This document shows, piece by piece, positions 3 through 4,991 of a stretch of DNA of 4,991 bases. The translations under genes were made by a program, and so were the position numbers. Source of the stretch: a virus (lineage: Duplodnaviria; Heunggongvirae; Uroviricota; Caudoviricetes); the IMG/VR virus record IMGVR_UViG_2706794678_000008; one strand, written 5' to 3'. The notes beneath the pieces are model-generated. The model did not search any database and was not told the DNA's origin. It saw nothing but the letters and a program-made list of their open reading frames with translations. Positions within the stretch are counted from its first letter, which is position 1; the number at the start of each line of letters is the position of its first letter.

Positions 3-2748
3 TCAGAAACGAACGCATCATCAAGCGCCAGTAGCGCAGCTTCCTCGGCGACGGCGGCTGCAAATTCTGCGAAGGCGGCCAAAACGTCCGAGACGAACGC
101 CAGGTCTTCTGAAACGGCAGCGGGACAGAGTGCCTCAGCTGCGGCAGGCTCAAAAACAGCGGCTGCGTCGTCTGCCAGCGCCGCGTCAACAAGTGCCGGG
201 CAGGCCTCAGCCAGTGCCACCGCCGCCGGAAAATCGGCAGAAAGCGCCGCATCGTCTGCTTCAACAGCCACAACGAAGGCTGGCGAAGCCACTGAACAGG
301 CCAGCGCAGCAGCGAGGTCTGCTTCCGCAGCGAAGACATCCGAAACGAACGCGAAAGCGTCGGAAACAAGCGCAGAATCCTCAAAAACGGCTGCCGCATC
401 GTCAGCCAGTTCGGCGGCGTCATCGGCATCATCGGCGTCTGCTTCAAAAGATGAGGCGACCAGACAAGCGTCAGCAGCGAAGAGCAGCGCCACGACGGCA
501 TCCACGAAGGCGACAGAGGCTGCTGGCAGTGCGACGGCGGNNNNNNNNNNNNNNNNNNNNNNNNNNNNNNNNNNNNNNNNNNNNNNNNNNNNNNNNNNNN
601 NNNNNNNNNNNNNNNNNNNNNNNNNNNNNNNNNNNNNNNNNNNNNNNNNNNNNNNNNNNNNNNNNNNNNNNNNNNNNNNNNNNNNNNNNNNNNNNNNNNN
701 NNNNNNNNNNNNNNNNNNNNNNNNNNNNNNNNNNNNNNNNNNNNNNNNNNNNNNNNNNNNNNNNNNNNNNNNNNNNNNNNNNNNNNNNNNNNNNNNNNNN
801 NNNNNNNNNNNNNNNNNNNNCGGCGTCATCGGCATCATCGGCGTCTGCTTCAAAAGATGAGGCGACCAGACAGGCGTCAGCAGCGAAGGGCAGCGCCACG
901 ACGGCATCCACGAAGGCGACAGAGGCTGCTGGTAGTGCGACGGCAGCAGCTCAGAGCAAAAGTACGGCGGAATCTGCAGCAACGCGCGCTGAGACAGCGG
1001 CAAAACGGGCAGAGGATATTGCATCCGCCGTGGCGCTTGAGGATGCGAGCACGACGAAAAAGGGGATAGTACAGCTCAGTAGTGCGACTAACAGCACTTC
1101 CGAGTCACTGGCGGCAACACCAAAAGCCGTTAAGGCCGCGTATGACCTGGCTAACGGGAAATACACCGCACAGGATGCAACGACAGCACAGAAAGGGATA
1201 ATCCAGCTAAGCAGCGCGACCAACAGCACGTCTGAAACGCTGGCGGCAACGCCAAAGGCAGTAAAAGCAGCCAATGACAATGCTGAGAAACGTCTGCAGA
1301 AAGATCAGAACGGTGCGGATATCCCTGGCAAAGACACCTTTACGAAAAATATTGGTGCCTGCCGTGCCTTCGGTGGGTCAGTAAGCACAACAACAGGAAA
1401 CTGGACGACTGCACAGTTTATCGAGTGGCTGGATTCTCAGGGAGCATTTAACCATCCATACTGGATGTGCAAGGGTTCCTGGTCTTATGGCAATAATAAA
1501 ATCATTACTGATACTGGCTGCGGTAATATTCATCTCGCCGGAGCTGTCATTGAAGTAATGGGGATAAAGTCAGCGATGACGATCCGCATTACCACTCCGA
1601 CCACATCCAGCGGTGGCGGAACAACCAACGCCCAGTTTACCTATATTAATCACGGAACAGATTATTCACCTGGCTGGCGAAGGGACTATAACTCCAGAAA
1701 TAAGCCAACGGCATCAGAGATCGGGGCGCTACCGTCAGGTGGAACAGCAGTATCATCAGTTAATCTGGCTTCAAAAGGTCGGGTAGCCGCGCTGACAGAC
1801 AATACGCAGGGGGCAGCAGGTCTTGAGTTATACGAGGTGTATAACAACGGATATCCAACAGCGTATGGAAATATCATTCACCTGAAAGGGATGACAGCCG
1901 TTGGCGAAGGTGAGTTACTCATCGGCTGGAGTGGTACAAGCGGTGCTCATGCTCCGGCATTTATTCGTTCACGACGGGATACGACCGACGCAAACTGGTC
2001 GCCGTGGGCGCAGCTTTACACCTCGGCTCATCCTCCTGCAGAGTTTTATCCAGTCGGTGCACCAATCCCGTGGCCATCAGATACCGTTCCGTCTGGTTAT
2101 GCCCTGATGCAGGGGCAGACTTTTGACAAATCTGCTTACCCGAAACTTGCAGCCGCTTATCCGTCAGGCGTGATCCCTGATATGCGTGGCTGGACGATTA
2201 AGGGCAAGCCCGCCAGTGGTCGTGCCGTATTGTCTCAGGAACAGGATGGCATTAAATCGCACACCCACAGCGCCAGCGCATCCAGTACGGATTTGGGGAC
2301 GAAAACCACATCGTCGTTTGATTACGGCACTAAATCCACGAATAACACCGGGGCGCATACGCACAGTCTGAGCGGCTCTACAAGTTCAGCTGGGGCCCAC
2401 CAACATAGTCAGACTGGGCCCAGAACGAATAGCGGGAGTCAACCTACTGGAATGTTTCCGGCAGGGAGTACTCAAGTTAGCGGGACTAATCAGGTTGGTA
2501 TCAGTGGCTCATTAACCAGTGGCACCTCCCAATGGGTAGGTAAATCATCTTCAGAAGGAAACCATACACACTCACTGTCCGGCACAGCAGCATCTGCGGG
2601 TGCACACGCGCATACTGTCGGTATTGGTGCTCATACGCACTCTGTTGCGATTGGTTCACATGGACACACCATCACCGTTAACGCTGCTGGTAACGCGGAA
2701 AACACCGTCAAAAACATCGCATTTAACTATATTGTGAGGCTCGCATAA
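3..2748 (+). CDS. stf: Side tail fiber protein (lambda Stf-like), 5'-partial (gene begins upstream of window); reading frame interrupted by assembly gap 541-820
   Basis: Frame 3 is open without stops from position 3 to 540 and encodes Ala/Ser/Thr-rich repeats ([13 protein letters not shown]..., [21 protein letters not shown]...). After the gap the same protein continues in frame 1 (821-2748): the fiber motif [26 protein letters not shown] twice, a globular middle region, then a His-x-His-rich tip ending ...[31 protein letters not shown], stop TAA 2746-2748. The frame-1 Arg-rich translation before the gap in the ORF track (MPQLRQ...) is out of frame; the frame shift across the gap reflects an arbitrary gap length. 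Confidence 0.9.
415..944. repeat. Direct repeat flanking the gap: 415-538 and 821-944 (124 bp, 3 mismatches), coding the [21 protein letters not shown](S/G)[18 protein letters not shown] shaft repeat
   Basis: Direct comparison of the sequence on either side of the N run; the copies are offset by 406 bp (not a multiple of 3), so the true gap length and repeat copy number are unresolved. Confidence 0.85.
541..820. other. Assembly gap (280 N) inside the repetitive tail-fiber shaft coding region
   Basis: Uninterrupted run of n from 541 to 820, flanked on both sides by the same 124-bp sequence (415-538 and 821-944). Confidence 0.97.
1063..1272 (+). repeat. Two copies of a 26-aa phage tail-fiber motif G-I-[VI][23 protein letters not shown] (1063-1140 and 1195-1272), period 132 bp
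   Basis: Protein-level repeat with largely synonymous nucleotide divergence between copies; this motif is recalled from P2 gpH, lambda Stf and T4 fiber proteins. Confidence 0.8.
2361..2572 (+). other. Hypervariable block A of the fiber tip (encodes ...[64 protein letters not shown]...)
   Basis: Region where unit A and unit B lose nucleotide similarity; bounded by conserved His-x-His-containing flanks. Confidence 0.75.
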
Positions 2749-2750
2749 TG
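2736..2750 (+). promoter_or_regulatory. Shine-Dalgarno (GAGG) plus overlapping stop/start TAATG; translational coupling of stf to the downstream ORF
   Basis: GAGG at 2736-2739, 8 nt upstream of ATG 2748; TAA 2746-2748 shares one nucleotide with ATG 2748-2750. Confidence 0.6.
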
Positions 2751-3800
2751 GCATTCAGAATGAGTGAACAAGCACGGACCATAAAAATTTATAACCTGCT
2801 GGCCGGAACTAATGAATTTATTGGTGAAGGTGACGCATATATTCCGCCTCATACAGGTCTGCCTGCAAACAGTACCGATATTGCACCGCCAGATATTCCG
2901 GCTGGTTTCGTGGCTGTTTTCAACAGTGATGAGTCATCGTGGCATCTCGTTGAAGATCATCGGGGTAAAACGGTTTATGACGTGGCTTCCGGCGACGCGT
3001 TATTTATTTCTGAACTCGGTCCGTTACCGGAAAATGTTACCTGGTTATCGCCGGAAGGGGAGTTTCAGAAGTGGAACGGCACAGCCTGGGTGAAGGATAC
3101 GGAAGCAGAAAAACTGTTCCGGATCCGGGAGGCGGAAGAAACAAAAAACAACCTGATGCAGGTAGCCAGTGAGCATATTGCGCCGCTTCAGGATGCTGCA
3201 GATCTGGAAATTGCAACGGCTTATCCGTCAGGCGTGATCCCTGATATGCGTGGCTGGACGATTAAGGGCAAACCTGCCAGTGGTCGGGCCGTATTGTCTC
3301 AGGAACAGGACGGCATTAAATCGCATACCCACAGCGCCAGCGCATCCAGTACGGATTTGGGGACGAAAACCACATCGTCGTTTGATTACGGCACTAAATC
3401 CACGAATAACACTGGTGCGCATACCCATAGTTTAAGTGGCAGCACGAATGCAGCTGGTAATCACAGCCATAGAGATGGCCGTCGATTTAACCCCAGTGTT
3501 TTTAAAGATACTTATCAATATGGTTATACAAGCTCAGGTCAAAATACCTGGGGTGTACAAGGCTCAGTAGGTATGTCTACGGGGTGGTTAGCGAATACCA
3601 GTATAGATGGTAATCATAGCCATTCACTGTCCGGCACAGCAGCATCTGCAGGTGCACACGCGCATACTGTCGGTATTGGTGCTCATACGCACTCCGTTGC
3701 GATTGGTTCACATGGACACACCATCACCGTTAACGCTGCTGGTAACGCGGAAAACACCGTCAAAAACATCGCATTTAACTATATTGTGAGGCTCGCATAA
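2748..3800 (+). CDS. Chimeric ORF: tail fiber assembly protein N-terminal domain (about aa 1-157) fused in frame to a duplicated side-tail-fiber C-terminal tip (about aa 158-350)
   Basis: ATG 2748-2750 overlaps the stf stop (TAATG) with GAGG at 2736-2739. The N-terminal 157 aa ([44 protein letters not shown]...) are near-identical to the downstream tfa. From 3219 the ORF continues into [18 protein letters not shown]...[11 protein letters not shown], matching the C-terminus of the upstream fiber except for the hypervariable block. Stop TAA 3798-3800. Whether the fusion is a functional product or a by-product of the duplication is unknown. Confidence 0.7.
3425..3624 (+). other. Hypervariable block B of the duplicated fiber tip (encodes ...[60 protein letters not shown]...)
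   Basis: Counterpart of block A in unit B; 12 bp shorter, more AT-rich and richer in aromatic residues; the same His-x-His positions are retained at both edges. Confidence 0.75.
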
Positions 3801-3802
3801 TG
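3788..3802 (+). promoter_or_regulatory. Shine-Dalgarno (GAGG) plus overlapping stop/start TAATG; translational coupling into tfa
   Basis: Identical arrangement to 2736-2750, carried within the duplicated unit: GAGG 3788-3791, TAA 3798-3800, ATG 3800-3802. Confidence 0.6.
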
Positions 3803-4381
3803 GCATTCAGAATGAGTGAACAAGCACGGACCATAAAAATTTATAACCTGCTGGCCGGAACTAATGAATTTATTGGTGAAGGTGACGCATATATTCCGCC
3901 TCATACAGGTCTGCCTGCAAACAGTACCGATATTGCACCGCCAGATATTCCGGCTGGTTTCGTGGCTGTTTTCAACAGTGATGAGTCATCGTGGCATCTC
4001 GTTGAAGATCATCGGGGTAAAACGGTTTATGACGTGGCTTCCGGCGACGCGTTATTTATTTCTGAACTCGGCTCATTACCGGAAAATGTCACCTGGTTAT
4101 CCCCGGAAGGGGAGTTTCAGAAGTGGAACGGCACAGCCTGGGTGAAAGATGCAGAAGCAGAAAAACTGTTCCGGATCCGGGAGGCGGAAGAAACAAAAAA
4201 CAGCCTGATGCAGGTAGCCAGTGAGCATATAGCGCCGCTTCAGGATGCTGTGGATCTGGAGATCGCAACGGAGAAAGAAACCTTGTTGCTGGAAGCTTGG
4301 AAAAAGTATCGGGTGTTGCTGAACCGTGTTGATACATCAACTGCACCGGATATTGAATGGCCAGTAGCACCTATAGGGTAA
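3800..4381 (+). CDS. tfa: Tail fiber assembly protein (lambda Tfa family), full length, 193 aa
   Basis: ATG 3800-3802 overlaps the preceding stop (TAATG) with GAGG at 3788-3791. The protein [44 protein letters not shown]...[34 protein letters not shown] is recalled as closely similar to lambda Tfa and E. coli prophage Tfa proteins. Stop TAA 4379-4381. Confidence 0.92.
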
Positions 4382-4991
4382 ATTCGTAATGATTACCTAA
4401 ATACGTTATTCTTTTGTTAAAAAAGTGATTTTGCTATAGGTAGGGAGTATGTTCTTGGATTAAGAATAAAAAATCGCCATGAAAGAGCTTCATGGCGAGT
4501 ACATAAACGTACAAAATGTGATGAAAGTAGAGTGGCGTAAGCCACTATATTAAGATATGACAATAGCGAAGAAAAGTAAATAACATTTTATGGACGTTTA
4601 ATTGTTAATTATAAAAACTAGAGTGCCCGATATTGTTTATCTTGCTTTAAAATAATGTACTCAAACCAAATTTTTGAGCTAAAAGCTCAAATAATATAAA
4701 TGCAATAATAATGTTTAATAAGACAATTAGCTTGCTTTGTATTTTCATTTCGGAATACTGTTAAGTAACTTTGATGACCCTAACAATAGATCGGAATTTT
4801 CTTAGAGTCAATGGTCACTGTTTTTGCTTGCAAAGCAAATGTTTTGGTGGTTATAAGTCGTCTTAATATAGTCACGCATGCAACTTGTTCCATGCGGAGA
4901 TTAAAGATTGGAATATAACGCGAAGATGGAATTAAATTACATTTGCAATAATTAATTTATTATTACTCAATAATTACCGATATTATTATTG
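4382..4991. other. AT-rich non-coding region downstream of tfa; no ORF of 60 aa or more on either strand
   Basis: Abrupt GC drop immediately after the tfa stop; only very short ORFs (35 aa or fewer) without convincing ribosome-binding sites; several small hairpins (e.g. ttgagct-aaa-agctcaa at 4674-4690). Confidence 0.6.
4462..4497 (-). terminator. Putative rho-independent terminator for a leftward (minus-strand) transcript
   Basis: Perfect 9-bp stem cgccatgaa (4475-4483) / ttcatggcg (4489-4497) with 5-nt loop. On the minus strand the hairpin is followed by AUUUUUUAUU (complement of 4465-4474). On the plus strand the run is an A-tract upstream of the stem, so it is weaker as a tfa terminator, though bidirectional action is possible. 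Confidence 0.45.

Follow-up and report, generated by a model that had tools for sequence, protein, structure and literature searches.

A minus-strand unit behind tfa in lambda-like prophages of Escherichia coli, probably a moron with a gene for a YncL-family small membrane protein

The DNA analysed here, a window of 4,991 nucleotides from a virus of the class Caudoviricetes (IMG/VR record IMGVR_UViG_2706794678_000008), ends in 610 bp of AT-rich sequence (4382-4991) located directly behind tfa, the last late gene of a lambda-like prophage. The question raised by this locus is whether such a segment is a genome boundary, the end of a transcript arriving from elsewhere, or a gene-bearing unit of its own. 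An original prediction, which was made from the letters of the window, had considered all of these possibilities. The analysis described below leads us to regard positions 4382-4928 (about 550 bp) as probably a phage moron, i.e., a self-contained minus-strand accessory unit that contains a previously unannotated gene for a small membrane protein of the YncL family and uses a hairpin near tfa as its terminator.

Composition and layout of the unit

Composition was determined in windows of 200 nt. The GC content was 0.475-0.535 (about 50%) across 4001-4400, dropped at the tfa stop, and was 0.37, 0.32, 0.275, 0.26, and 0.34 across 4301-4900; the abrupt fall at the tfa stop that had been described was thus recovered as a change from about 50% to 26-37%. 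The longest ORF within 4382-4991 encodes 48 aa, and the earlier statement that the 610 bp contain no substantial ORF was literally correct, but it overlooked a conserved ORF of 33 codons on the minus strand (4748..4647). This ORF is yncL-like and lies inside the segment, as would be expected from the companion suggestion that an accessory gene may be carried there. The 48-aa ORF itself (4563..4417) was rejected as a candidate, its frame being shifted by 5T/6T length variation in the tail, as was a 37-aa ORF (4893..4780) that is annotated in phage PhiR70_1 and whose frame is broken by indels in the L006 lineage. The AT-rich spacer that extends from the tfa stop codon to the terminator tail (4382..4467) is without a conserved ORF.

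An intrinsic (Rho-independent) terminator was located on the minus strand at 4468..4498 using a consensus terminator scan. It consists of a stem of 11 pairs (4498..4474), five of which are G-C, and a run of six U residues (4473..4468; tail TTTTTTATTC). Two terminator-like sites were found in 4300-4991 compared with 0.2 +/- 0.5 in dinucleotide shuffles. The folding energy of the hairpin was -15.2 kcal/mol in the window (RNAfold) and ranged from -13.2 to -17.1 kcal/mol in other lineages, where the tail is UUUCUUAUU or U5, and the stem was unchanged in 19 variants. As a T-run is present on the minus-strand side but not on the other, the hairpin is read as a unidirectional terminator. The minus-strand hairpin with a U-tract that had been proposed therefore holds, with an excess over shuffles, and its reading as the terminator of a leftward transcript is supported. 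The source of that transcript had been sought in a gene possibly beyond the window; it is more probably the ORF at 4748..4647, whose stop codon is separated from the terminator by a gap of 150 nt, and extension to the right yielded no other leftward gene upstream in the window's own lineage. The hairpin is most likely the terminator of this yncL-like unit, and in sit-type prophages, which are described below, it would also halt any read-through from sitD.

A sigma-70-type promoter-like site (TTGACT, 17 nt, TATTGT) is present on the minus strand at 4783..4811, 35 nt upstream of the ATG. It agrees with the consensus at 9 of 12 positions, and promoter-like matches in the region are at chance level (3 found vs. 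3.9 expected in shuffles). Support for this weak site comes from its position and conservation rather than from the match count: of the promoter-like sites, this one alone keeps its position throughout the six lineage representatives (with TATCGT in the L006 lineage). From this site a leader of ~27 nt is predicted (4749..4776, minus strand), which is without a Shine-Dalgarno sequence. Further upstream lies a conserved block (4858..4928) that has two allelic forms and an invariant centre, ATGCAACTTGTTCC; identity across this block is 84-87% in every lineage, the palindrome arms to either side of the centre are not preserved, and the block is possibly an operator. Two palindromes had been reported in the segment, and both exist (4673-4691, -8.3 kcal/mol; 4875-4896, -7.5 to -10 kcal/mol), but their stems are not kept in diverged lineages. 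The former falls within the ORF, its stem being disrupted in L006 and L007, and of the latter only the loop is invariant, so that neither was retained as an element. A sigma-54-like TGGAAC..TTGCA at 4876-4890 was also set aside on account of its spacing, which was wrong as judged by eye. The module ends at 4928, and positions 4929..4991 are a lineage-specific right flank in which the AraC-type cargo region starts; on this side the lineages diverge at ~4929 (sit type) or ~4963 (ydfJ or second-tfa-fragment type).

In the simplest reading of this arrangement, promoter, leader of ~27 nt, 33 codons, 3' UTR of ~150 nt, and terminator make up one unit. The sigma-70-type promoter (4811..4783) would produce a transcript of ~310 nt, in which the leader would be followed by the 33-codon gene (4748..4647) for a putative single-pass small inner-membrane protein homologous to YncL. 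The 3' UTR, the final 76 nt of which are highly conserved, would come next, and the hairpin-plus-U6 terminator (4498..4468) would end the RNA, thereby sparing tfa and stf antisense transcription. We infer promoter activity in lysogens, translation of the ORF, and a mode of action of the protein like that of YncL. Since nothing here terminates the plus strand, late plus-strand transcription would cross the unit in antisense.

The 33-codon yncL-like gene

The ORF at 4748..4647 (minus strand; 33 codons and a stop) specifies the product MKIQSKLIVLLNIIIAFILFELLAQKFGLSTLF, which is predicted from homology and coding signature to be a YncL-like single-pass small membrane protein and has a GRAVY value of 1.51. 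When the peptide was searched against NCBIfam, YncL was the sole family returned (E-values up to 10), with an E-value of 1.3e-5 and a score of 25 bits that missed the curated cutoff of 35 bits for the equivalog model NF000537; the product is classified on this basis as a YncL homologue or paralogue and not as an equivalog. Comparison with YncL of E. coli K-12 (MNVSSRTVVLINFFAAVGLFTLISMRFGWFI, read from the genome) gave an ungapped BLASTP alignment with 39% identity over 28 aa (E-value of 2e-7) and a probability of 89.9% in hhalign (E-value of 1.7e-6).

The K-12 protein (b4598) is a stress-response small inner-membrane protein of 31 aa, near-identical in length to the 33 aa found here, and the two align from Met1 without a gap, sharing among other residues S5, N12 (midway along the hydrophobic helix), and (K/R)-F-G at 26-28. 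About 31 aa, one hydrophobic helix, and colinear similarity, the properties by which a YncL was recognized, were all found in the 33-aa peptide. The two genes differ in their surroundings. In K-12, yncL is located between patD and ortT, is preceded by a Shine-Dalgarno sequence (AAAGGTGG), and has a terminator directly after its stop codon, whereas the moron copy lies behind tfa in lambdoid prophages, has no Shine-Dalgarno sequence before its ATG in any lineage (upstream sequence CAGUAUUCCGAAAUG), and has a 3' UTR of 150 nt with a conserved end.

Integrity and substitution pattern of the ORF were assessed across copies and lineages. The ORF was intact and of the same length in all 38 full copies from genomes and IMG/VR and in 25 of the 26 full copies from metagenomes, the exception having ATA for ATG, which amounts to 63 of 64 full copies overall. 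Between the window and L006 there were 11 synonymous and 7 non-synonymous differences (pS 0.56, pN 0.088, pN/pS 0.16, binomial p 1.5e-4), and between the window and L007 there were five and one, respectively. Differences were distributed over codon positions 1, 2, and 3 as 7, 1, and 10, and no other frame was open. By this test, which is based on 24 substitutions in about five lineages with recombination present, the ORF is under purifying selection. Because of its YncL homology, integrity, synonymous bias, and single open frame, it is treated here as a real protein-coding gene and as a prophage paralogue of yncL.

In the published work on the K-12 protein, production of YncL in exponential phase partly dissipated the membrane potential, condensed the nucleoid, and increased sensitivity to pore-forming peptides; overproduction drives a stress or low-metabolism state, and both heat shock and minimal medium induce the gene (PMC12542507). 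KilS and RprA are RIL-seq or TRIC-seq partners of its mRNA. By analogy, the prophage protein could act like YncL, or it might instead be an inner-membrane superinfection-exclusion factor like gp15 of HK97, a small inner-membrane moron product that blocks DNA entry (Cumby et al. 2012, PMC3594210).

Existing resources contained few traces of the peptide. Among ~15 billion predicted proteins the exact sequence occurred twice, both times unnamed, and a HMMER search over 1.84 billion representative proteins returned the peptide itself, one frameshifted variant, and nothing else. No match to the peptide was obtained in Pfam, PHROGs, or PADLOC, and a full-text literature search with the hairpin, core, and peptide sequences retrieved no paper.

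Distribution and genomic context

Of 5426 complete E. coli genomes, 830 (15%) contained the 610-bp segment, at 939 places that were all chromosomal, and it also occurred in the phages mEp332, PhiR70_1, and ev099; a search of plasmids did not recover it. Among the records listed (E. coli genomes, RefSeq, and phage records), no annotated feature was found under the segment match. Diversity was narrow, with about five lineages, all from E. coli: the window type at 98-100% identity and others at about 94%, 88%, 84%, and 77%. Neither the DNA pattern nor the peptide identified distant relatives in GTDB species representatives, and IMG/VR and the metagenomes contained the same five lineages only, with no further relatives. 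Recombination was evident in L039, a mosaic in which an L006-like left flank is joined to an L007-like right part at the 76-nt 3' end.

Gene order in the window's own lineage is J, lom, stf, and tfa, followed by 1.5 kb of unannotated AT-rich DNA. To the right of this are an AraC-family regulator gene, IS2 remnants, and then either int/xis (phage) or ybhB-bioA (prophage), the latter being the lambda attB site. This order places the segment inside the phage genome. The prophage boundary that had been suggested earlier is contradicted by phages mEp332 and ev099 and by prophage L004, in which 2.6-3.3 kb of further phage DNA lie to the right of the segment, and a check of the segment for an att site led outside it, as an att remnant (the 3' fragment of a tRNA-Ser gene) and attR lie 1.9 and about 3 kb rightward. 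The remnant, at L004 6860-6930 and 1.9 kb past the right end of the window, matches with 100% identity the 71 nt at the 3' end of a tRNA-Ser gene that is present in 5423 of 5426 E. coli genomes, and no whole tRNA was found at this location by ARAGORN. The fragment looks like an att-site scar and suggests that the AraC-family cargo was captured from a tRNA-Ser-integrating element. The regulator gene (250 aa; L004 7497-8249, also in L001-L003) is located at the right end of the phage genome, with a long AT-rich leader before it and IS2 remnants after it, and its product presumably belongs near the AppY, GadX, PatE, and Psr group of prophage regulators.

The module invariably follows the 3' end of tfa, and its right neighbour varies: the AraC-family gene, sitABCD of an icd-site prophage, the ydfJ junction of a degraded Qin-site prophage, or intS with tRNA-Arg. 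The right flanks of 55 copies comprised 26 of the AraC type, 10 with a second tfa 3' fragment, 4 of the sit type, and 12 of no assigned type, and the remaining 3 were cut by a contig end. As these flanks differ, 4382 to ~4928 is regarded as a module that travels with the tfa end independently of the cargo.

The tfa ends themselves have several forms. In L005 (~6580-6690), L006 (6587-6686), and L058 (5530-5629) the module lies between two tfa 3' ends, the second of which is a frameshifted fragment of ~90-100 nt that ends in ...DIEWPAVPVG and a stop; this arrangement suggests either spread via recombination within tfa ends or an insertion that duplicated the tfa end. Behind S74-peptidase-type tail fibres, which presumably no longer need Tfa, the tfa 3' end persists as a pseudogene stub of 130-160 nt (L005, L006, L008, and L058), with the module still behind it. 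In L008 (strain fM51a, 4001-4126), only the first 70 nt of the segment are left, followed by IS1A and then the AraC-family gene, and this stub represents an IS-mediated loss of the module.

Within the window, stf ends at 2748 and is followed by a chimeric ORF (2748-3800) and by tfa (3800-4381; Pfam Caudo_TAP, E-value of 4e-44). A tandem duplication of ~1.05 kb in 2132-4267 covers the C-terminus of stf and the N-terminus of tfa (97% identity between 2553-2852 and 3605-3904, 88% between 2132-2408 and 3196-3472). It gave rise to the chimeric ORF between stf and the intact tfa, in which ~146 N-terminal Tfa residues are continued in frame by an alternative C-terminal domain of Stf and which may represent a second receptor-binding cassette. 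In stf, the repeat region rich in Ala, Ser, and Thr contains 280 N at 541-820 (masked or unassembled), and the sequences flanking this run nearly repeat one another. Toward its 3' end (4200-4341, plus strand), the tfa coding sequence is matched by the Rfam entry IS009 (RF02111, typed 'Gene') with 155.9 bits vs. a threshold of 117. In mEp332 (L108 15358-16455), a second minus-strand moron was observed, consisting of a gene for an NmpC-like porin that lies between those for the Q antiterminator and the holin.

HK97 gene 15 and lambda bor and lom, which are reportedly phage morons (Juhala et al. 2000; Cumby et al. 2012, PMC3594210), share with the present unit a deviant GC content, an own terminator, an own promoter-like site, a position beside tail genes, and a patchy presence among related phages, and a small inner-membrane product, as predicted here, is also known for gp15. 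Differences from these morons are the absence of any sequence relation to gp15 and transcription antisense to the late operon. A moron has been defined by its own promoter, its own terminator, and deviant GC (PMC3594210). The unit behind tfa deviates in GC from its neighbours (26-37% vs. about 50%), has in silico a factor-independent terminator of its own, and carries TTGACT-17-TAT(T/C)GT in 6 of 6 lineages as a 9/12 match, the number of such sites being at chance level. It is inserted between variable neighbours, i.e., tfa on one side and four different neighbours on the right, and has been lost in L008 except for the 70-nt stub.

The conserved 3' end and alternative readings

Conservation was measured by region as identity to the window in L006, the most distant lineage. 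It was 69.6% from the tfa stop to the terminator (4382-4473), 92% in the terminator hairpin (4474-4498), 94% in the spacer and second hairpin (4499-4549), and 63.7%, with indels, in the rest of the 3' UTR (4550-4646, minus strand). The ORF (4647-4748) was 82% identical, the leader (4749-4776) 75%, the promoter region (4777-4812) 83%, the upstream variable stretch (4813-4857) 59.6%, and the conserved block beyond it (4858-4928) 86%. The terminal 76 nt of the unit (4474..4549, minus strand) are thus 92-94% identical vs. 64-70% in the flanks and 82% in the ORF, and a plain protein-coding moron leaves unexplained why the 3' end should be better conserved than the ORF.

This 3' end is composed of the terminator, an unpaired A/U-rich stretch, CUCUACUUUCAUCA(C/U)AUUUUGUACGUUUAUGUA, and a second, small hairpin, GUGGC-UUAC-GCCAC (4531..4544, minus strand; -8.9 kcal/mol), the stem of which is kept in 19 of 19 variants, one C-to-U change leaving a minus-strand U-G pair. 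When folded, the minus-strand RNA of 144 nt has an energy of -35 kcal/mol (z -7.0), and the plus strand folds about equally well (z -5.9) owing to the inverted repeats. Both hairpins were kept when the 19 variants were folded using RNAalifold, with a covariation term of -0.25 kcal/mol; a putative long-range stem (4504-4522 with 4580-4600) contained one compensatory pair (GC, GU, and AU states and one AC) and several broken pairs. A 25-nt inverted repeat (4531-4555 with 4861-4885) showed no compensating changes, is approximately at chance for AT-rich DNA, and was discarded. The conserved 76 nt may be a 3'UTR-derived sRNA or a stability element, and their conservation may in part be recombinational.

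That the functional product is RNA can be entertained as a tentative alternative: the 76-nt 3' end would yield an Hfq-type sRNA that regulates host genes, either cut out of the yncL-like mRNA or transcribed from a promoter within the unit, and the resulting dual-function unit would be compatible with the moron explanation. The excess conservation of the core argues for it, as does the architecture, a stem-loop followed by ~32 unpaired A/U-rich nt and a terminator with a U tail, which supplies the U-tailed intrinsic terminator after a conserved unpaired stretch that is expected of such RNAs. In addition, G-U changes preserve pairing at 7 pairs on the minus strand vs. 4 on the plus strand, and a weak internal promoter-like site (TTTACT-17-TATCTT, start ~4545) occurs in 4 of 6 lineages. 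This site is, however, lost in the L006 lineage, the covariation comes to a single compensatory pair, and the recombination joint in L039 lies at the 3' end itself. Pairing of the core with the 5' part of the unit or with K-12 yncL mRNA was no better than in shuffles, and none of the 68 translation-initiation regions of phage mEp332 paired with it above shuffles (lowest z -1.45). The unit resembles the 3'UTR-derived or dual-function sRNAs CpxQ, SgrS/SgrT, and AzuCR in combining a short ORF with a best-conserved 3' end made up of a hairpin, an A/U-rich stretch, and a U-tailed terminator; it differs from them in having no Rfam match, and the small-RNA homology raised as a check in the original prediction was thus not recovered. 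Weak minus-strand cmscan alignments to MicC (RF00121; 22.8 bits vs. a threshold of 90, E-value of 0.72) and Esr41 (RF02676; 15.6 bits vs. 102) end at the same terminator, but they are sub-threshold, the L006 lineage does not retain the MicC-like 5' motifs (GUUAU, UAUUGUCA), and the resemblance is due to chance. The stronger proposal, in which one cassette on the tfa 3' end provides both a YncL-like depolarising microprotein and a trans-acting sRNA, seems to us doubtful.

Three further readings dispense with some part of the unit or add to it. The hairpin might act as an insulator against leftward cargo transcription (e.g., from sitABCD) into the tail-fibre genes, the ORF being incidental; a unidirectional minus-strand terminator is suited to this, and in L007, L059, and L006 sitABCD runs leftward toward the module, ending 236 nt or more away. 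We nevertheless judge it unlikely, since the commonest contexts (AraC and ydfJ types) have no upstream leftward gene besides the small ORF and since purifying selection on that ORF and the conserved promoter-like site would be left unexplained. Only a slim chance is given to a type I toxin-antitoxin-like or abortive-infection module, in which the peptide would be a depolarising toxin whose translation is held back by the folding of its own mRNA or by a second RNA, antisense or divergent. Such a role would draw on the dissipation of membrane potential by the overproduced YncL homologue (PMC12542507), on the missing Shine-Dalgarno sequence and the long, structured 3' UTR, and on weak plus-strand promoter-like sites at 4557-4586 and 4844-4872. 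Against it, no plus-strand promoter-like site is common to all lineages, complementarity between a divergent RNA from 4875-4960 and the ORF mRNA did not exceed that in shuffles (z +0.66), the 5'-3' pairing of the single-sequence fold is not conserved, no PADLOC family was matched, and no antitoxin is known for chromosomal yncL; a search for an antitoxin-like partner among repeats, plus-strand promoter-like sites, and RNA complementarity found none, and no suitable direct repeats. Finally, non-functional AT-rich filler, i.e., a prophage end or att scar with a chance hairpin, would agree with the high AT content and with the lack of an annotated feature in the records listed, but it is very improbable given that the segment is internal to complete phage genomes, that its conservation is patterned and includes a coding signature, that its terminator lies above shuffle expectation, and that the tRNA-Ser att remnant and attR are found 1.9 and about 3 kb further right.

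The reading preferred here, a probable minus-strand moron with a yncL-like gene, concerns two classes of elements, small membrane proteins and prophage morons, that are routinely overlooked by annotation. The ORF is conserved and under selection, yet it is unannotated in the RefSeq and phage records listed, and the module that contains it occurs in 830 of the 5426 complete genomes of E. coli, where it travels with tail-fibre modules beside virulence or fitness cargo (sitABCD, AraC-family regulator). If it is expressed in lysogens, stress tolerance, sensitivity to antimicrobial peptides, or phage exclusion could change. Phage mEp332, whose recorded host is K-12 MG1655, provides a ready experimental system, and with its unusually conserved 3' end the unit offers a concrete candidate prophage sRNA. 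Should the dual-function reading be true, host physiology would be reprogrammed, or superinfection blocked, in about 15% of E. coli strains.
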